Assembly: GCA_051955775.1 (NCBI GenBank)
Contig: JBQCGJ010000094.1
Coordinates: 1-47,362, forward strand
Reading direction: 5' to 3'
Source: Gaiellales bacterium
GTDB taxonomy: Bacteria; Actinomycetota; Thermoleophilia; Gaiellales; JAICJC01
Length of the DNA stretch: 47,362 nt
In this document: in pieces, positions 1,603 through 47,362 of the stretch
Layout of the letters: every line of letters starts with the position of its first letter
Position numbering within the stretch: the stretch's first letter is position 1
Program-made: the position numbers and the translations under genes
The notes under the pieces: model-generated
What the model was told of the DNA's origin: nothing
The model's input: only the letters and a program-made list of their open reading frames with translations
The model's database searches: none

Positions 1603-3678
1603 TTACAGCCCGGCCGACTCCACCACGGCGATCAGCGCATCGGCCACACGAGGATCGAAATGCGATCCGTAGCAGCGGCGGATCTCCTCGATCGCCTGCG
1701 CGCGGCCCACCGCAGGACGGTACACGCGGTCGCTGGTGAGCGCGTCGAAGGCATCGCAGGCCAGGATCACCCGCGCTCCCAGCGGGATCTGCTCACCCGC
1801 CAGCCCGAGCGGATAGCCGCCGCCGTCCCAGTGCTCGTGACAGGCCAGCACGAGCTCCCGGGCGCCCGCCAGCGCCGGCACCGGCTCGATGATCCGCGCC
1901 CCAAGTTCGGGGTGCAGCCTCATCACGGCCCACTCCTCTTCGGTCAACGGCCCGGGCTTGTTGAGGATCTCCAGCGGGATCCCGATCTTCCCGATGTCGT
2001 GAAGCGCCGCGCCCAGGCTGAGGTCGCGCAGCTCGCGCCCGGTCATGCCGAGCTTCACGCCCACCTCGCCGCTCAGCCCGACCAGTGCCTGTGCGTGGTC
2101 CGCCGTGTAGTCGTCCTTGGTCTCGAGGGCGTTCGCGAGCGCCTTGACCGTGGACAGGAACGACTCGTCCAGCTCGCGGTACAGCTCGTAGTTGGTGAGC
2201 GCCAGCAGCGCCTGATCGGCGATGCCCAGCAGCATCTGCTCGTCGCGCGCCGTCGGCGCCCCCCGCCGCGGGCCGCGCCGCAGCACGATCGCGCCCCGAT
2301 TGCCGCCGCCCTCCCCGATGGGCACGATGACCACCCTGGAGGCCGGAGGCATGTCGGCCGGGGCGGTGGGATCGACCTCGAGCACGGTCAGCCGGCGGCG
2401 GCGAAGCGCCTCGGCGTACGGCTCGCGGGTGGTGTCGAGCCGCCGGGCCCGAAGCCATTCGACCTGCGCCGGGGTGTAGCCCACATGCGCCGAAAGCCGC
2501 AGGTGAACGCCGTCGCCGAGCCACACGCCAAGCGCCGCGCAGTCCACGAGATTGTCGACGGCGGTGGCCACCATGCGGGCGACCTCCTTGATGCTTCCCT
2601 GCTCCGCGAGTGCGGCGCCCAGCTCGAGCAGCGCACCGGCCACGTCGGCCTGCTCCCGCGCCGTCTGGTTCAGCCGTGCGCTGCGGCAGCCGACCGCTGC
2701 GGTCGACGCCACGGCATTCAGCATCCGCAGGTCGTCCTCGCCGAAGCGGCCGGCGCCGAGCCTGGACAGCACGATCACGCCGATCGGCTCGCTCTCGATC
2801 AGCATCGGCACCGCCACCATCGACTCGTCGACGGTGTCGGTACCCGGGATCTGCACGGCGGCGGGGTCCAGGCGGGCGTTGGGGATCACGCGGGGCGTGC
2901 GGTCGGCGAACGTGCGGCCGGCGATGCCCTCCCCGATGAGGCACTCGAAGTCCTCTCCCGACAGGCGGTCGACCGCCGGGTCGACGCTCGAGTGAGCCAC
3001 GGCGATCAGGCGGTCGCCGGCCGGCGAGAGCAGGTAGAAGCGGCACGAGTTGCTCTCGATCATCGCCATCAGCCCGTTCACCACGGCGCGGGCGACATCC
3101 ACCTCGGAGCCGGCGCTCGCCAGTGCGACGGCAAGCGACTCCAGGATCATCGGCGAGGAGGCGCTCTCGGGCTGGCGCCGCGGGCGCTCCTTCGGCGCGA
3201 GGCGCACGCCCGGGGCGTGGATGGCCCCGATCAGCTCTGCGCAGGCCAGGTCTTCCTCGGGGAACGGCTGGGTTGATCGGACGGCGCCCACCAGATAGGC
3301 GCTGAATGCCGAATCGGCGGCCAGTTCCACGATGACGACGGTGTAGCGTCCGTCGCTGGTCTGGCTGACATCGCCCACCGCCGACTCGGCCAGCCCGCGC
3401 AGCCGCATGTCGCCGAGCCGCGCAGCCGGTCCTCCCGGTCGCACCCAGCGGGCGCTCGGAGCGAGATCGGACGCCGAGCCGGACAGCAGCCAGGCGGCGT
3501 CGAGACCCAGCAGCTCTCCCAGAGTCGAACAGGCGGCATCCCCAGCCTCGTCTGGGCCGAGCGACGCTGCGCCGCGCGCCAGGTCCGCCAGCCGGAGCAG
3601 GCGAATGGCGGCGCTGGTCGCCTCCCGGCGCGCCGACCCAAGAGCCGCCGAGAGGTCGGAAACGCTCGTCCGGACCAC
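1603..3678 (-). CDS. multi-GAF sensor HD-GYP domain phosphodiesterase (putative c-di-GMP phosphodiesterase)
   Basis: The C-terminus has HDIGKIGIP ... HHEHWDGGGYP (HD-GYP). The N-terminal ~480 aa looks like repeated GAF-type modules. Confidence 0.85.
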   Translation of the reverse strand: MVRTSVSDLSAALGSARREATSAAIRLLRLADLARGAASLGPDEAGDAACSTLGELLGLDAAWLLSGSASDLAPSARWVRPGGPAARLGDMRLRGLAESAVGDVSQTSDGRYTVVIVELAADSAFSAYLVGAVRSTQPFPEEDLACAELIGAIHAPGVRLAPKERPRRQPESASSPMILESLAVALASAGSEVDVARAVVNGLMAMIESNSCRFYLLSPAGDRLIAVAHSSVDPAVDRLSGEDFECLIGEGIAGRTFADRTPRVIPNARLDPAAVQIPGTDTVDESMVAVPMLIESEPIGVIVLSRLGAGRFGEDDLRMLNAVASTAAVGCRSARLNQTAREQADVAGALLELGAALAEQGSIKEVARMVATAVDNLVDCAALGVWLGDGVHLRLSAHVGYTPAQVEWLRARRLDTTREPYAEALRRRRLTVLEVDPTAPADMPPASRVVIVPIGEGGGNRGAIVLRRGPRRGAPTARDEQMLLGIADQALLALTNYELYRELDESFLSTVKALANALETKDDYTADHAQALVGLSGEVGVKLGMTGRELRDLSLGAALHDIGKIGIPLEILNKPGPLTEEEWAVMRLHPELGARIIEPVPALAGARELVLACHEHWDGGGYPLGLAGEQIPLGARVILACDAFDALTSDRVYRPAVGRAQAIEEIRRCYGSHFDPRVADALIAVVESAGL

Positions 3679-42924: not shown

Positions 42925-43010
42925 CCGCCCACCCTAGCACCACCTGCTAACCCGAAGGTTCGACATTCAGGAATTGCCACCGGGGGCGCCGGGTGGAGGA
43001 TGATGCGGGC

Positions 43011-44657
43011 ATGAGGCGCGTTCTGCATCCCCTCCGCAGCGTGCTGGCCAACCCCGCACTGGTCAGGCTCCAGTTGTCGTGGGCCGGGTCGATGCTCGGC
43101 AGTTGCGCCTATGTCATCGCGCTGTTTGTGGTGGCGTTTCACTCCGGAGGCGCCACCGCCGTCGGACTGATCCTGGTCGTCAAGACCGCGACAGCTGCGA
43201 TCGCCTCGCCCATCATGGGCGGACTGGCCGACCGGCATTCGCGGCGATCCCTGATGGCCCTGAGCGACAGCGTGCGGGCGGCGCTCACCGTGGTCATGGC
43301 GCTGCTGGTCCACACCGGCGCACCGATCGTGACGGTGTACCTGATGGTGGTCGCAGTCAGCGTGGTGGGCGCTGTGTTCCGGCCGGCGCAGGGTGCCCTG
43401 GTACCCGCCCTGGCCACCTCACCGGAGGAGCTGACTGCGTCCAACGCGCTCTCCGGCACGATCGAAAGTGTGGGGATCTTCGCCGGCCCCGGCATCGGCG
43501 GGCTTGTCATGGCGGTCGCAGGAACTGACGCCGTGTTCATCCTGTGCGGCATCGCGTACGGTTTCTCGGCCGTGTTTGCGCTGTCGATCGACGAACCTGC
43601 ACGGGTGCAGGCGGATCACGTGCCTGATGACCGCGAGGGCAAGGCCGGGGTCAGCGGGCTGAGCCTGTTCACGTCCGCGCCCACGCTGGTCGCGGTTACG
43701 CTGACGTACGCCGCTCAGGCCCTGGCGGCGGGAGCTCTGGGCGTGTTCATGGTCGCCCTCGCGATCGACGAGCTCGGGCTCGGGTCACCCGGCGTGGGGT
43801 ACCTCGACGCCGTCTTCGGCGTCGGCGGCGTGGTCGGGGGTGCGATCATCACGGCCATGTCCGGGACGAGACGGCTGGCGGCGGCGTTCGGGATCGGAGT
43901 GGCGGGATGGGGCATCGGCGTCGCTCTGTGCGGCGTCACCACGAGCACGGTCGTCGTGTTCGCGCTGATGGCCGGAGTCGGGGCGGTGAACACCGTGGTC
44001 GACGTGGCGGCCGTCACGCTCATCCAGCGGTCCGCCCCGGACGCGGTGCTGGGCCAGGTGTTCGGCATCCTCGAGAGCCTGATGCTCGCGTCCCTGGGCG
44101 CCGGGGCGTTGCTGGCCCCACTGGCCATCCGCGGGATGGGATTGCGCGGGTCGCTCGTCGTCACCGGGCTGGTGCTGCCCGTCGTGGTCGGGCTCGCCCA
44201 GCGCCAGCTCGTCAAGCTCGACAGGCTCGATCCCGATCTGGCACACAGGGTCGAGCTGCTGCGCGGCAACCGCGTGTTCGCCCCGCTTGCCGAGGCCACA
44301 TTGGAGCAGCTGTCGCGCCAGCTGGAGGCGGTGCAGGCCGCGGCCGGGTGTGAGGTGATCCACCAGGGCGACCACGGCGACCGCGTGTACCTCGTCGAGA
44401 CCGGCCGGCTGGAGGTCGACGTGGACGGCCAGGCCGGTGCTGATCTGGAGGCGGGCGATGTGTTCGGCGAGATCGCGCTGCTCGAGGACGTCCCCCGCAC
44501 CGCGACGGTGCGGGCCGTCACCGAGTGCAGGCTGTTCACTCTCGGCCGCGACGAGTTCCTCGCCGCCGTCACCGGCCACCCGCGGAGCGCGGCAGAGGCC
44601 GCGGTGGTGGTGTCGTCGCGCCTGGGCGCCCTGCGCCCCGGGGTGGTGACCACGTGA
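43011..44657 (+). CDS. MFS transporter fused to a C-terminal cyclic-nucleotide-binding (CAP/cNMP) domain
   Basis: About 12 TM helices with an MFS-type loop (GGLADRHSRR). The C-terminus has GDVFGEIALL...RTATVRA. Confidence 0.85.
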   Translation: MRRVLHPLRSVLANPALVRLQLSWAGSMLGSCAYVIALFVVAFHSGGATAVGLILVVKTATAAIASPIMGGLADRHSRRSLMALSDSVRAALTVVMALLVHTGAPIVTVYLMVVAVSVVGAVFRPAQGALVPALATSPEELTASNALSGTIESVGIFAGPGIGGLVMAVAGTDAVFILCGIAYGFSAVFALSIDEPARVQADHVPDDREGKAGVSGLSLFTSAPTLVAVTLTYAAQALAAGALGVFMVALAIDELGLGSPGVGYLDAVFGVGGVVGGAIITAMSGTRRLAAAFGIGVAGWGIGVALCGVTTSTVVVFALMAGVGAVNTVVDVAAVTLIQRSAPDAVLGQVFGILESLMLASLGAGALLAPLAIRGMGLRGSLVVTGLVLPVVVGLAQRQLVKLDRLDPDLAHRVELLRGNRVFAPLAEATLEQLSRQLEAVQAAAGCEVIHQGDHGDRVYLVETGRLEVDVDGQAGADLEAGDVFGEIALLEDVPRTATVRAVTECRLFTLGRDEFLAAVTGHPRSAAEAAVVVSSRLGALRPGVVTT

Positions 44658-45193
44658 GCGGGCTCGTGGCACGCTGCCGGATGGGCGACCAGGACGCCTG
44701 GCGGGAGCTGGTGGAGCACCACTCCCGGTACGTGTACGCCATCCTCATGCGCGGGTTCCGCCTGCCCGCGGGCGAGGCCGAGGACATCTTCCAGGACGTG
44801 TTCGCGCGCGTGTTCGAACGGCTCGACACGCTGCGCGACGACGACGCCCTGGTGGCGTGGATCGGGCGCCTGACCCGATCGCTGTGCGTGGACCACCTCC
44901 GCCGCCAGCGCGAGACGCAGGAGCTGACCGACGAGGGCGCCGGGCAGGACGACCACGAGCTGGAGCAGATCGAGCTGGCGGTCGTCGTCCGTGAGGCACT
45001 GACACGGCTGCCCGAGGCGTGCGGCGAGATCATCGAGCGGTTCTTCTTCCAGGAACAGCCGTACGCGCAGATCAGCGCGGAGCTGGACATCCCGCCGGGC
45101 ACGGTGGCCAGTCGCATCAGCCGCTGCCTCGATCGGTTGCGGACGACGATTGATGGAAGCGAACTGGGATCGCAACCGTCTAGGAGAACATGA
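44654..45193 (+). CDS. ECF-type sigma-70 family RNA polymerase sigma factor
   Basis: Region 2 (EDIFQDVFARVF, WIGRLTRSLCVDHLRR) and region 4 (QPYAQISAELDIPPGTVASRISR). GTGA overlap with the MFS stop. Confidence 0.88.
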   Translation: MSGLVARCRMGDQDAWRELVEHHSRYVYAILMRGFRLPAGEAEDIFQDVFARVFERLDTLRDDDALVAWIGRLTRSLCVDHLRRQRETQELTDEGAGQDDHELEQIELAVVVREALTRLPEACGEIIERFFFQEQPYAQISAELDIPPGTVASRISRCLDRLRTTIDGSELGSQPSRRT

Positions 45194-45447
45194 ACATCAA
45201 CGAGCACGAGCTTGAACGACTGCTGCGGATGCTTCCGCCTGCGCCCACCGCCTGGGTGCGGACGGCGCAGGAGTTGCCATTCGTGAAGGACGAGGTCGCA
45301 GAGATCCTGGAGCGGGCGGCCGCCAACCCGGCCTTCCGTGAGGAGCTGCGACGCGATGCCGACGGCGCCCTCCGCCGTGAGGGCCACATGCTGACGCCGG
45401 ACGTGGTCGCACACATCCTGCGCAAGCTGCCCGGCGCTCGGAGCTGA
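45190..45447 (+). CDS. 85-aa hypothetical soluble protein in the anti-sigma position
   Basis: ATGA overlap with the sigma gene. High GC3, no TM and no Cys. Contains the segment NPAFREELRRDADGALRREG. Confidence 0.6.
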   Translation: MNINEHELERLLRMLPPAPTAWVRTAQELPFVKDEVAEILERAAANPAFREELRRDADGALRREGHMLTPDVVAHILRKLPGARS

Positions 45448-45523: not shown

Positions 45524-46381
45524 ATGACGACGGAACGGGGGGTGTCGGTGGTCCTGCACGCGGGCGACGAAGCGAGCCGGCCGGCGCACGGAGTCGGCGG
45601 CGAGGCCGCCCGCGACCTGCCGGGAGCGAGGGTGTGGCCGGCCAGGGTCGACCGCGAGTGGGCGCTTGGCGGGTCGACCGGCGCCGGCGTCACCGTGTGC
45701 ATCGTGGACAGCGGCGTCGACGCCGGCCACCCGCGCGTCGGAGACCTGAAGCAGGCCATGGCCGTCAGCATCGAGGACGGGCAGGCGGTGATCGAGCCGG
45801 ACGAGCTGGGCGACGTGTGCGGCCACGGCACCGCATGCGCCGGCATCGTCAGGTCCCTCGCGCCCGAGTGTGAGATCGTCAGCATGCGCGTGCTGGGAGA
45901 GGGGTTCATCGGCAGCGGGCCGGCGCTGATCGAGGGCCTGCGCTGGGCGGTCATGCAGGGGTTCGACGTCATCAACATGAGCCTGTCCACCACCAAGGAG
46001 CGATTCATCGGCGACCTGCACTCGCTGGCCGACGCGGCGTACTTCCGGCGCAGCCTGATCGTGGCCTCCGCCCACAACATGCCGGTTCGCAGCTACCCGT
46101 GGCGATTCGCGTCGGTGGTGTCGGTGGCCAGCCACGACCTCGGCGATCCGATGGTCTACCTGCGCAACCCGGACCCGCCGGTCGAGTTCTACGCCCACGG
46201 GATCGACGTCGACGTCGCGTGGAGCGGCGGGTCGACGCTGACGGCGAGCGGCAACAGCTTCGCGACGCCTCACATCTCGGGAATCTGCGCGCTGATGCGC
46301 TCCAAGCACCCGCAGCTGACGCCGCCCGAGGTGAAGACGCTGCTCGGCCTGACGGCGGCCAATGCGGAGGCTGCGAGATGA
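45524..46381 (+). CDS. S8 (subtilisin-like) serine peptidase, no signal peptide
   Basis: Catalytic triad contexts VDSGVD, HGTACAG and GNSFATPHISG. The N-terminus is hydrophilic. Confidence 0.88.
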   Translation: MTTERGVSVVLHAGDEASRPAHGVGGEAARDLPGARVWPARVDREWALGGSTGAGVTVCIVDSGVDAGHPRVGDLKQAMAVSIEDGQAVIEPDELGDVCGHGTACAGIVRSLAPECEIVSMRVLGEGFIGSGPALIEGLRWAVMQGFDVINMSLSTTKERFIGDLHSLADAAYFRRSLIVASAHNMPVRSYPWRFASVVSVASHDLGDPMVYLRNPDPPVEFYAHGIDVDVAWSGGSTLTASGNSFATPHISGICALMRSKHPQLTPPEVKTLLGLTAANAEAAR

Positions 46382-47022
46382 GCGACCCGCGCACCGGCGC
46401 CGCGCTGGGGCTGCTCCCGGACGACGAGCTCCACCGATCGCTGCTGGCCTCGATCGTGAACGTTGCCCGAGCCATCTTCGGCGCCCGGGCGGCGTCGGTG
46501 TTCCTGCTCGACGAGGACGCTGACGAGCTGGTGTTCGAGGCGGTCAGCGGCGCGGGCGAGGATTCGCTGGTGGGTCGCCGGTTCCCCTCCAGCACGGGGA
46601 TCGCCGGCTGGGTGTTGACGACCCGGCAGCCGCTGGTGCTGGACGACGTCAGCCGCGACCCGCGGTTCGCAGCCCAGGCGGCCGAGTCGACCGGCTACGT
46701 GCCACGGGCGATCATGGCCGTGCCGCTGCTCTCCGGGGAGCGGTCGCTGGGCGTGCTCGAGGTGCTCGACCGCCCCGCGGGCGAGCGGTTCACGATGGAG
46801 CAGGCCGACCTGATCGCGATGTTCGCAGCGCAGGCCGCGATCGCGCTCGACCTGCTGCTGCGTTCACGCGCGGCCCGGGCGGCGCTGGACGATGGCAGCG
46901 CCGACACGGCGGTGCTGGCGCGCATCGCCCAGACGCTGCTCGACCAGGAGGACGAGGAAGACCGGCGGGCCGGCCGGGAGTTCCTCGAGGCGCTGGAACG
47001 GGTGCTGGCGCGGCCGCGCTGA
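46378..47022 (+). CDS. stand-alone GAF domain protein
   Basis: GAF-like core (ASVFLLDEDADELVFEAV...GIAGWV...AIMAVPLL...LGVLEVL). ATGA overlap with the S8 stop. Confidence 0.8.
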   Translation: MSDPRTGAALGLLPDDELHRSLLASIVNVARAIFGARAASVFLLDEDADELVFEAVSGAGEDSLVGRRFPSSTGIAGWVLTTRQPLVLDDVSRDPRFAAQAAESTGYVPRAIMAVPLLSGERSLGVLEVLDRPAGERFTMEQADLIAMFAAQAAIALDLLLRSRAARAALDDGSADTAVLARIAQTLLDQEDEEDRRAGREFLEALERVLARPR

Positions 47023-47064
47023 GCGGACTTGCTGGAGGGGCATGGCGATACTTCGAAAGGTGTG

Positions 47065-47091
47065 GGAAGATCGACGGCGTCAATCGCGTCT
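47065..47091 (+). promoter_or_regulatory. ECF-like promoter candidate GGAAG-N17-CGTCT
   Basis: The spacing and both half-sites resemble the generic ECF GGAAC-N16/17-CGT pattern. It lies 35 nt upstream of the micro-ORF start. Confidence 0.35.
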
Positions 47092-47125
47092 CTTAAGCAG
47101 CGTCCCACTACAGCAGGAGGTCAGT

Positions 47126-47296
47126 ATGGGAACCGATGAGCGCGAGGCTGGGAAGCACCCACGCGCCGACGGTGAGCCCGACGTCGAGGCCCACCAGCAT
47201 TTCCACAAGGCACGGGACGAGGAGCAGCCCAACCCTGAGGACCGCGACGACGACGACAAGCCGGACGTCGAGGCCCATCAGCACTTTCACAAGTAG
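47126..47296 (+). CDS. 56-aa His-rich acidic micro-protein with two PDVEAHQHFHK repeats
   Basis: An AGGAGG RBS sits 5 nt before the ATG. The two 33-nt repeats (47177-47209 and 47261-47293) differ at 4 positions, all synonymous. A terminator-like palindrome follows. Confidence 0.7.
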   Translation: MGTDEREAGKHPRADGEPDVEAHQHFHKARDEEQPNPEDRDDDDKPDVEAHQHFHK

Positions 47297-47307
47297 GTGG
47301 CGCGGAC

Positions 47308-47335
47308 GCGGCGGGCTCGATCGAGCCCCCCCCGC
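47308..47335 (+). terminator. GC-rich palindrome hairpin after the micro-ORF
   Basis: The perfect palindrome GGGCTCGATCGAGCCC (47313-47328) has flanking GCGG/CCGC. CCCCCTTT follows it. Confidence 0.5.
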
Positions 47336-47362
47336 CCCCTTTGACCCGCGCGGCCCCAGAAA

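Follow-up and report, generated by a model that had tools for sequence, protein, structure and literature searches.

A conserved micro-ORF encoding D-V-E-A/G-H motifs is linked to subtilase-GAF and MFS transporter genes in Gaiellales

Near the end of a Gaiellales contig, a 56-codon open reading frame lies beyond genes for a subtilisin-type (S8) peptidase and a GAF-domain protein. The locus raises two questions: whether so short an ORF is a gene at all and, if it is, what its product does in this company. We analysed the whole 47,362-nt stretch, hereafter the window, together with related loci from other genomes. The features discussed below are listed in Table 1.

Table 1. Features of the micro-ORF locus (positions in the window)
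Feature	Position	Strand	Basis
MFS (MFS_1/MFS_3) transporter with C-terminal cNMP-binding domain	42993..44657	+	domain scan, synteny
ECF-type sigma factor gene, start codon uncertain; optional member	44525..45193	+	Sigma70_r2, r4_2; TIGR02937 E = 1.5e-27
Degenerate box copy GGAAGCG-N15-CGTCT, inside 3' end of ECF gene, just before NHLP-like gene	45155..45181	+	sequence reading
NHLP-like small protein, 85 aa; optional member	45190..45447	+	NF038399 E = 5.8e-9, below family cut-off; PF14407 weak
S8 subtilisin-type peptidase, 285 aa, catalytic domain only	45524..46381	+	Pfam Peptidase_S8 E = 1e-28
GAF-domain protein, 216 aa; constant micro-ORF neighbour	46372..47022	+	Pfam GAF E = 5e-22
Bipartite box GTGGGAAGAT-N15-CGTCT, ~36 nt upstream of ATG	47062..47096	+	conservation across related loci
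Shine-Dalgarno AGGAGG, 5-nt spacer (TCAGT) to ATG	47115..47120	+	sequence; kept in relatives
Micro-ORF, 56 codons + stop; acidic disordered protein with two PDVEAH modules	47126..47296	+	sequence, repeats, relatives
Repeat unit 1, PDVEAHQHFHK; D-V-E-A-H = residues 19-23	47177..47209	+	repeat search, alignment
Repeat unit 2, PDVEAHQHFHK, C-terminal end of protein; D-V-E-A-H = residues 47-51	47261..47293	+	repeat search, alignment
Palindrome GGGCTCGATCGAGCCC, perfect, 3' of micro-ORF stop codon	47313..47328	+	inverted-repeat search

The ORF opens with an ATG at 47126-47128 and closes with a TAG at 47294-47296. As originally predicted, AGGAGG stands 5 nt before the ATG. The product, MGTDEREAGKHPRADGEPDVEAHQHFHKARDEEQPNPEDRDDDDKPDVEAHQHFHK (56 aa), contains 18 Asp and Glu, 8 Lys and Arg, and 7 His residues (12.5%), and neither a signal peptide nor a hydrophobic stretch was found in it. 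AlphaFold2 returned a pLDDT of 65 and a pTM of 0.17, indicating that the micro-protein is disordered, so that its motif sites should be accessible.

The original prediction also held that the protein carries two identical PDVEAHQHFHK repeats differing only at synonymous sites, under selection on the peptide. Both points stood up to analysis. The two 33-nt units differ at exactly four positions (CCC/CCG, CAC/CAT, CAT/CAC and TTC/TTT), all of them third-position and synonymous. The synonymous share among the possible single-base changes in a unit is 17-25%, and four of four synonymous differences have a probability of 0.0009-0.004 under neutrality. According to the repeat search, the similarity extends to 46 nt at 83% identity. 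In the antisense ORF at 47108-47290 the same four differences are non-synonymous, which indicates that selection acts on the plus-strand frame. Among 56 two-module relatives, D19, V20 and E21 of the first unit are invariant and A22 and H23 are at least 90% conserved; in the second unit, D47, V48 and H51 are invariant. The dN/dS of the whole micro-ORF against its closest orthologue is 0.84. The constraint is therefore confined to the motifs, a pattern equally compatible with a binding motif.

Relatives of the micro-protein were not reached by a word-index protein search with the single peptide, which returned the query itself only; they required exhaustive phmmer and profile searches. The former yielded 9 relatives among 1.84 billion representatives and the latter at least 1001, which are unannotated. 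A Pfam-A and NCBIfam scan of six members, including the window protein, gave no meaningful match at E-values up to 10, in keeping with the original statement that no named family could be recognised. A full-text literature search on the motif strings returned unrelated matches only, so that the family is without relevant literature.

Family proteins are about 50-130 aa long, acidic and intrinsically disordered, and come from Gaiellales/Thermoleophilia, mostly uncultured soil actinobacteria. Each contains one to five modules, spaced by about 23-27 residues, in which an acidic run is followed by [P/D]-D-V-E-[A/G]-H and a short basic tail. Across 302-305 modules, the Asp, Val, Glu and His are invariant or nearly so and the flanks vary. 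Conservation beyond this D-V-E-A/G-H core is limited to an N-terminal M-G/S-x-D-E-R (MGxDER) and to an EPED linker in members with two modules. Between motifs the sequence is polar and poorly conserved, and it usually differs from segment to segment within one protein. Histidine makes up 7.3% of family residues, cysteine is essentially absent, and Leu, Ile, Phe, Trp and Tyr together account for less than 5%. A second His follows at P2' in 45% of modules, and x-H-K in 26%. The larger repeat emphasised in the original prediction did not carry over to these relatives: the identity of the 11-mer between units is not conserved, nor is the HxHxH element (HQHFH), and only D-V-E-[A/G]-H is invariant. 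Since nearly all relatives have tails that vary from module to module, a reading of the protein as many identical product copies was dropped, and the identical pair of QHFHK tails is specific to this genome.

Taken together, the repeat comparison and the relatives leave little doubt that the micro-ORF is a real, conserved coding gene. The alternative is that GC-rich DNA produced the ORF by chance, or that it is a DNA- or RNA-level repeat, an antisense peptide or an upstream leader ORF. Such an origin could be suspected from a short ORF at a contig end whose motif contains a palindrome, GACGTC, that makes the antisense strand read G-L-D-V twice, and whose product is His-rich like the leader peptides of his operons. 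It is nevertheless highly improbable given the synonymous-only repeat differences, which are non-synonymous on the antisense strand, and the existence of at least 1001 relatives in which start, Shine-Dalgarno sequence and motif are conserved. In all aligned relatives AGGAGG or GGAGG occupies the same place before the retained start codon, and the orthologous loci keep the ORF without frameshifts, as anticipated. Rfam covariance models had no match in 46900-47362 at E-values up to 1. Attenuation is further opposed by the absence of consecutive His codons from the micro-ORF. The downstream gene and its orientation vary between loci, often to convergent, so the ORF cannot be the leader of a fixed operon. 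Beyond the stop codon, the palindrome GGGCTCGATCGAGCCC could fold into a stem-loop at the end of the transcript. It lacks the canonical form of an intrinsic terminator, and a scan for terminators found none.

The gene keeps constant company. In 16 of 16 assessable orthologous Gaiellales/Thermoleophilia loci (L001-L017, without L005, whose contig ends too early), a family member adjoins the S8-GAF pair, the gene for an MFS transporter with a cNMP-binding domain (MFS-cNMP), or both. The same linkage was found in all seven further informative contexts (L035, L036, L037, L039, L040, L042 and L044), bringing the total to 23 of 23 informative loci; the short contig L040 shows the MFS partner alone. 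The linkage persists across at least six gene orders and in both orientations. In most loci the micro-ORF is convergent with S8-GAF and not co-transcribed with it; L042 has the operon-like order micro-ORF, S8, GAF. Constant partners are thus S8, GAF and MFS-cNMP, and the optional ones are the ECF gene, the NHLP-like gene and a cNMP-binding protein. These data make a functional link of the micro-ORF to S8-GAF and MFS-cNMP very probable.

The partners named in the original prediction need some revision. Co-localisation with S8 and GAF genes was confirmed in the assessable related loci, but the third proposed partner, the ECF gene, is merely optional: it is present in most related clusters, is absent within 9 kb of the micro-ORF in L037, and is represented near L035 by a SnoaL-type ECF alone. 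The peptidase, described as adjacent, is linked at the level of the locus but not directly, as the GAF gene intervenes. The MFS-cNMP gene, among the most constant partners, had gone unmentioned. According to the closest relative, L001, the sequence past the contig end would contain unannotated ORFs and a GAF-ANTAR gene and no further micro-ORF copies. Beside the S8-GAF pairs of Streptomyces (L018-L027), neither an equivalent small ORF nor the promoter box described below was found; the protease must therefore have other substrates or roles.

The S8 protein has subtilisin BPN' as its best PDB match (E = 1e-25). Its triad, D62/H101/S243, corresponds in the alignment to D32/H64/S221, and 30 orthologues retain it. 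The oxyanion Asn is intact and is followed by a 6-residue deletion, likewise conserved in 30 orthologues. The residue after this deletion, in the S1 region, is Arg or Lys in the close relatives of the window and Glu or Asp in most other lineages. The N-terminus reads as polar, and no hydrophobic N-terminal signal was seen in it. Between the GAF and S8 genes there is a 10-nt overlap, and the GAF protein has as closest solved relatives the cNMP-binding GAF domains of PDE2/5/6/10 and adenylate cyclase chain 1ykd. The MFS-cNMP gene is the divergent neighbour of the micro-ORF in most loci.

The NHLP-like protein bears a resemblance to two families, Os1348 and Frankia_peptide. In Pseudomonas, the 85-aa Os1348 has been described as a 'precursor' associated with antibiotic activity and efflux genes (PMC7726476), and NHLP, Os1348 and Frankia_peptide proteins contain a three-helix LigA-like domain (PMC12353581). 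The micro-protein is comparable in being a small protein of the same cluster with an apparently common promoter box, but it is disordered and built of repeats, without relation in sequence or fold. A 'PDVVAH' string in the NHLP-like protein of the window, considered as a shared motif, is not conserved in orthologues and was treated as coincidence.

Upstream of the micro-ORF, a bipartite box, GGGAAGAT-N15-CGTC, occurs with fixed spacing in every related locus (25 distinct sites). Its halves lie at 47064-47071 (GGGAAGAT) and 47087-47090 (CGTC) in the window, which contains a single match at up to one mismatch, compared with 0.14 expected. The layout is that of a GGAA-type -35 plus a CGTC-type -10, as for ECF-sigma-dependent genes, and no sigma-70-like promoter was found. 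The box is probably a promoter, and it looks like an ECF-type -35/-10 pair. Better copies than the degenerate one within the ECF gene, GAGGGAAGAAA...CCGTC.GGTG, were found at the same position by PWM scan in L003, L004, L005, L008, L010, L011, L014, L015, L036 and L042. With this second, weaker class of the box before them, the NHLP-like, S8 and GAF genes appear to form one regulon with the micro-ORF. The ECF sigma factor of the cluster is a candidate to recognise the box; the main text of the ECF re-classification paper mentions no ECF group with an S8/GAF context.

Feedback regulators such as anti-sigma factors typically sit under the promoter of their own regulon, and a box common to the micro-ORF and the NHLP-like-S8-GAF genes is what a regulatory protein would be expected to have. 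On this account, the D-V-E-A/G-H motifs would be short linear binding motifs, not cleavage sites, of a disordered protein that could serve as multivalent adaptor, inhibit S8 as a pseudosubstrate, antagonise the ECF sigma factor or bind the GAF or cNMP domains as a ligand, with feedback on the regulon. The disorder, the invariant 5-residue motifs set in variable linkers in one to five copies at the spacing given above, and the near-neutral evolution outside the motifs would all suit such a role. We nonetheless consider it rather unlikely. The ORF and its box are retained in L035 and L037 without the cluster ECF gene, the Pfam and NCBIfam scan revealed zero similarity to a known anti-sigma domain or protease inhibitor, and an inhibitor has no obvious need for multivalency.

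The reading that we tentatively favour, although we hold it with less than even confidence, makes the disordered micro-protein a substrate or precursor that the cytoplasmic subtilase would cut at several sites, V-E-A/G-H occupying P4-P1. Subtilases recognise their substrates through P4-P1, where P4 is hydrophobic and P2 small, and PatA, a subtilase of the cyanobactin pathway, cleaves behind G-(L/V)-E-(A/P)-S, which has the same L/V-E-A pattern. The linkage to an S8 gene with intact triad and oxyanion Asn argues for this reading, as does the apparent fit of the motif to the subtilase P4-P1 preference. Precursors with several cores, in which subtilisin-like proteases cut at recognition sequences of 4-5 residues, have precedent in the literature (PMC4663559).

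In the proposed scheme, the micro-ORF would form its own transcription unit, expressed from the ECF-like box and the strong Shine-Dalgarno sequence. Its product would work with the cytoplasmic S8 peptidase, the translationally coupled cNMP-type GAF protein and the MFS-cNMP transporter. Each D-V-E-A/G-H would serve as an S8 docking and cleavage site, with Val in S4, Glu at P3, Ala or Gly at P2 and His at P1. Cleavage would release acidic fragments and short basic peptides starting X-His, here QHFHK, with the GAF partner gating protease activity. The fragments might be exported via the MFS transporter, or cleavage might simply mark regulated destruction of the micro-protein.

Several observations count against a role as S8 substrate. 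His is an atypical P1 residue for subtilisins. The 6-residue deletion at S1 and the variable residue after it leave no clear complementary pocket. Co-variation of S8 pocket residues with the P4 Val/Phe variants (DVE(A/G)H versus DFEGH lineages) is confounded by phylogeny and speaks neither for nor against this role. The differing segments between motifs of one protein speak against many copies of one product. Further, no RiPP-modifying enzyme was found in the cluster, where a heterocyclase, an oxidase and a prenyltransferase were looked for, and this was also counted against a substrate or precursor, together with the mostly convergent orientation of the ORF relative to S8-GAF and the homologous Streptomyces pairs that lack such an ORF.

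Comparison with two characterized systems places the substrate or precursor reading in context. Cyanobactin precursors contain one to four cassettes flanked by conserved 4-5-residue recognition sequences, with variable sequence between (PMC4663559). Like these PatE precursors, the micro-protein combines a repeated short invariant recognition sequence with variable segments and a candidate S8-fold processing enzyme, and D-V-E-(A/G)-H resembles the PatA site at P4-P2. Unlike PatA and PatG, however, the S8 protein of the window scores 22 bits against TIGR03895, for which the cut-off is 421, and lacks the DUF and macrocyclase inserts; the heterocyclase, oxidase and prenyltransferase of cyanobactin clusters are missing here. 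Unlike PatE, the micro-protein has no long leader, and its segments are polar and basic, lack Cys/Ser/Thr patterns and often reach the C-terminus. The hosts also differ, an actinobacterium here and a cyanobacterium for cyanobactins.

The Phr pentapeptide precursors of Bacillus are matured by subtilisin-family proteases. The proposed system would share with them a small unmodified ribosomal peptide, release by an S8 protease and a short species-specific product. By contrast, Phr has a Sec signal peptide and is cut extracellularly, whereas precursor and protease are without signal peptide here. Phr also lacks a repeated invariant motif, and its partners are Rap phosphatases rather than GAF, MFS-cNMP and ECF proteins.

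A third account is that the micro-protein binds metal, the Asp, Glu and His of D-V-E-A-H and the frequent H-x-H-K chelating a divalent ion (Cu, Ni or Zn). It could then be a buffer or chaperone, or be trimmed to an X-His-Lys-type metallophore exported by the MFS_3 protein. The invariant D, E and H are classic ligands, the window protein and its family contain His at the frequencies reported above, including the P2' and x-H-K positions, and the neighbouring transporter bears the Pfam name MFS_3, the family of siderophore-type exporters. The micro-protein likewise resembles Hpn-type proteins and GHK in being small, Cys-free and rich in His, Asp and Glu with H-x-H elements, and a cut behind the motif His would leave X-His at the new N-termini, as in GHK. 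Yet its His content is modest (12.5% here, 7% in the family) and the second His is unconserved: it is missing from more than half of the modules, leaving one Asp, one Glu and one His per module as constant ligands. The invariant Val and the restriction to Ala or Gly have no role in chelation and remain unexplained by metal binding. Moreover, the genes that constantly accompany the micro-ORF are those for a protease and cyclic-nucleotide sensors; regulators responding to metals, metal transporters and metalloenzymes are not among them. We therefore regard metal binding as unlikely.

Should the proposed mechanism be true, the locus would encode a compact and simple peptide-processing module, comprising a precursor, an intracellular subtilase, a GAF protein, a cNMP-domain exporter and an ECF-type promoter, which would be unusual for Actinobacteria. 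The micro-protein would also be the first candidate substrate for the widespread and unexplained S8-GAF pair, that of Streptomyces included. A further extension, which we consider doubtful, is that the locus represents a new system for unmodified ribosomal peptides, in which an ECF-type promoter would drive a multi-site precursor, a GAF-gated cytoplasmic subtilase would cleave it behind every D-V-E-A/G-H, and a cNMP-gated MFS transporter would export short, lineage-specific basic X-His-(Lys/Arg) peptides to act extracellularly as a pheromone or a Cu/Ni metallophore. If this peptide-system reading were true, abundant uncultured soil Gaiellales would possess a pathway for peptide signals or metallophores that belongs to a new class.

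In each case, the invariant pentapeptide constitutes a directly testable cleavage or binding site, in a family that has at least 1000 members in public metagenomes and is without a name or a Pfam or NCBIfam model. Even if the micro-protein is only a regulatory disordered protein, its sharp promoter box and motif provide a clear-cut example for annotating small proteins; the start is misplaced by some gene callers, as in the 79-aa protein P0002.

The micro-ORF opens with an ATG that follows AGGAGG at the 5-nt distance claimed in the original prediction, and its two 33-nt repeat units differ, as also claimed, at four third-codon positions, each synonymous. Because only 17-25% of the possible single-base changes in the unit are synonymous, four of four such differences would occur with P ~0.0009-0.004 under neutrality. 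GACGTC is a palindrome, so an antisense ORF likewise spells G-L-D-V two times, and the four differences are non-synonymous in that frame. The + strand frame is thus the target of selection. An Rfam search of the micro-ORF region returned no match, and the locus being a non-gene, an RNA or a leader peptide is so improbable as to be essentially excluded. A perfect 16-nt palindrome and then a C-rich run follow the stop codon; the terminator scan did not call a canonical terminator at the palindrome, and the contig ends 34 nt further on.

The micro-protein represents a real, widespread and unannotated family whose motif, promoter box and gene partners are well defined. A word-indexed protein search with the single micro-protein recovered only the query, and phmmer, run exhaustively against 1.84 billion representatives, yielded nine relatives of 51-58 aa, each with two PDVEAH units, one being a 79-aa protein with a mis-called start. 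A profile (A1) built from 17 sequences retrieved at least 1001 proteins at an E of 0.01 or better, all 'hypothetical', none with a Pfam domain and nearly always from metagenomes or Gaiellaceae MAGs. The original prediction had recognised no named family; likewise, Pfam and NCBIfam held no model for the six members tested, and a full-text literature search with the motif gave no relevant hits. The finding itself is solid, it yields directly testable hypotheses, and the family is confined to uncultured lineages.

To describe the repeats, we numbered residues from the motif His as P1 in 305 modules from 122 sequences, mostly two to five per protein, with a single module in a few relatives such as locus L003. 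Positions P9-P7 were acidic, P6 was Pro (53%) or Asp (31%), and P5-P1 were an essentially invariant D-V-E-(A 74%/G 26%)-H. Downstream, P1' was variable, P2' was His in 45% and P3' was Lys in 52%. Modules were mostly spaced by 23-27 residues, and the tail after the last His was usually basic and 4-6 residues long; within one protein, tails were usually unlike between modules. Residues D19, V20, E21, D47, V48 and H51 were invariant among 56 aligned two-module members. Among more distant relatives, some had D-F-E-G-H with expanded Gly-rich repeats behind it and others had repeats of E-D-T-E-G-Q/H. Whole-ORF dN/dS was 0.84 versus the closest orthologue, L001. The motif invariance, the variable tails and this ratio place the constraint in the pentapeptide, the N-terminal MGxDER and the EPED linker, and not in the HQHFHK tail, whose HxHxH pattern had originally been singled out. 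A metal-binding peptide would be consistent with D, E and H being invariant and with H-x-H-K being frequent, but would leave the Val and Ala/Gly unexplained and has no metal-related gene context; we consider it unlikely. According to AlphaFold2 with the 56-sequence alignment (pLDDT 65, pTM 0.17; sole helix short, residues 20-31), the micro-protein is disordered. That it is a regulatory or pseudosubstrate disordered protein whose motifs are binding sites seems rather doubtful.

Scanning genomes with the GAF protein as query identified 17 orthologous clusters in Gaiellales/Thermoleophilia MAGs, plus S8-GAF pairs in Streptomyces. A family member was present in 16 of 16 assessable clusters, L005 being left out since its contig ends too early, and 7/7 further informative contigs had the same neighbours. 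Usually, the micro-ORF lies on the opposite strand, convergent with the GAF gene and divergent from the MFS-cNMP gene. It is co-directional and 3' of GAF in the window and L001, occurs as two tandem copies adjoining the MFS gene in L007, and sits between the MFS gene and S8 in L009 and L042, the latter having an operon-like micro-ORF, S8, GAF order. In L037 it lies 3' of the MFS gene, and in L035 it adjoins GAF-S8-MFS without an ECF gene. That this obligate linkage persists through these rearrangements argues strongly that the micro-ORF is functionally connected to S8-GAF and MFS-cNMP. Of the predicted co-localisation with S8, GAF and ECF genes, the S8-GAF part held; the ECF/NHLP-like pair is optional, S8-GAF and MFS-cNMP being the constant partners. 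The Streptomyces pair, found in many genomes, has ~55% identity, the same S1-pocket deletion and no MFS-cNMP gene; micro-ORF and promoter box were both absent from the pairs examined (L018-L027). The 85-aa NHLP-like gene, to whose product the micro-protein is unrelated, lies directly 3' of the ECF gene with a 4-nt overlap, occupies the usual position of an anti-sigma factor and is kept in nearly all related clusters.

Positions of features in the window and at related loci (L-numbers)
Feature	Locus	Position	Strand	Remark
MFS transporter, C-terminal cNMP-binding domain	window	42993-44657	+	
ECF sigma factor	window	about 44525-45193	+	
Degenerate box copy	window	45155-45181	+	
NHLP/Os1348/Frankia_peptide-like protein	window	45190-45447	+	85 aa; NF038399 E = 5.8e-9, below cut-off; resembles PF14407 Frankia_peptide
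S8 peptidase	window	45524-46381	+	
GAF protein	window	46372-47022	+	10-nt overlap with S8 (46372-46381)
Long ORF	window	46892-47296		early start call
Promoter-like box	window	47064-47090	+	sole match in 47 kb at <=1 mismatch; 0.14 expected
Antisense ORF	window	47108-47290		
AGGAGG	window	47115-47120	+	5-nt spacer before ATG; read of 46800-47362
Micro-ORF	window	47126-47296	+	ATG 47126, TAG 47294-47296; product MGTDEREAGKHPRADGEPDVEAHQHFHKARDEEQPNPEDRDDDDKPDVEAHQHFHK
33-nt repeat units	window	47177-47209; 47261-47293	+	
Palindrome	window	47313-47328	+	GGGCTCGATCGAGCCC
Weaker-class box	L003; L015; L042	4269-4303; 4336-4370; 5927-5961		plus seven more loci
Stand-alone cNMP-binding genes	L036	6820-7233; 11584-11991		
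GAF-ANTAR/STAS/RsbW-like HATPase_c_2	L001	9833-10561	-	
GAF-ANTAR/STAS/RsbW-like HATPase_c_2	L043	3476-4207	-	
GAF-ANTAR/STAS/RsbW-like HATPase_c_2	L043	5667-6902		
Expanded/duplicated relatives (examples)	L009	1912-2193	+	
Expanded/duplicated relatives (examples)	L010	6740-6976	-	
Expanded/duplicated relatives (examples)	L013	6733-6945	-	
Expanded/duplicated relatives (examples)	L016	4421-4744	-	
Expanded/duplicated relatives (examples)	L007	3055-3219; about 3380-3637	+	

Upstream alignment revealed a box, GTGGGAAGAT(T/C)-N14-(C)CGTC(T)nGTG, of invariant spacing, 35-75 nt 5' of every start codon, at 25 distinct sites across related loci. The micro-ORF has this conserved box and a Shine-Dalgarno sequence to itself. 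The promoter scan found no sigma-70-type promoter. In general, ECF promoters combine a GGAA-type -35 with a CGTC-type -10 some 16-17 nt apart. A position-weight scan detected a weaker second class, GAGGGAAGAAA-N-CCGTC.GGTG, in ten loci, within the 3'-terminal part of the ECF gene and directly 5' of the NHLP-like gene. This points to an internal promoter of the ECF type ahead of the NHLP-like, S8 and GAF genes. These genes and the micro-ORF form one putative regulon, probably under the cluster's ECF sigma factor; the nearby ECF gene is missing from two clusters. Some gene callers start the micro-ORF ~28 codons early, as in the 79-aa family protein P0002. The 'conserved' N-terminal extension of P0002 (MAILR.. 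WEDRRR) is the translated promoter box GTGGGAAGATCG, which accounts for its apparent conservation.

Among the partners, the S8 protein consists of the catalytic domain alone and is nearest to subtilisin BPN'. It retains the Asp/His/Ser triad and the oxyanion Asn, carries at the S1 pocket a 6-residue deletion that is specific to its clade, and has no signal peptide visible in the sequence. The GAF domain is nearest to the cyclic-nucleotide-binding GAFs of PDE2/5/6/10 and adenylate cyclase chain 1ykd. With the MFS-cNMP pump and the stand-alone cNMP-binding genes of relatives, the cluster is rich in cyclic-nucleotide sensor domains.

Subtilases generally favour hydrophobic residues at P4 and small ones at P2, and PatA cuts cyanobactin precursors at G-(L/V)-E-(A/P)-S. 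We tentatively propose that the S8 peptidase docks on and cuts at the modules, Val occupying P4, Glu P3, Ala/Gly P2 and His P1; the Val and Ala/Gly agree with the subtilase preference, and the motif resembles the PatA site. Such cuts would yield short basic peptides that the MFS pump could export; in this micro-protein the peptide would be QHFHK, once at the free C-terminal end and a second time as part of the linker. However, His is not a usual residue at P1, the S1 region shows no conserved acidic residue, the cluster is without modifying enzymes, the segments between motifs are poorly conserved, and the Streptomyces pairs do without such a gene. By analogy, the system is most like PatE/PatA, a multi-cassette precursor cut by a subtilase, and Phr, an unmodified pheromone precursor. 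The micro-protein is a member of neither, since the S8 protein falls far short of the PatA/PatG model and the cluster has no tailoring enzymes, and since the signal peptide of Phr is absent. Multi-cassette cyanobactin precursors with 4-5-residue recognition sequences are documented (PMC4663559).

Two relatives that share the window's gene order have GAF-ANTAR, STAS and RsbW-like HATPase_c_2 genes a few kb past the micro-ORF, which hints that an additional layer of partner switching or antitermination may lie close by. Among relatives of the micro-ORF, repeats expand rapidly and genes duplicate, each copy keeping the same promoter box; examples include five copies of EDTEGQARRREEEA, four of GGG(S/D)EPxN downstream of D-F-E-G-H, and a gene present as two tandem copies.
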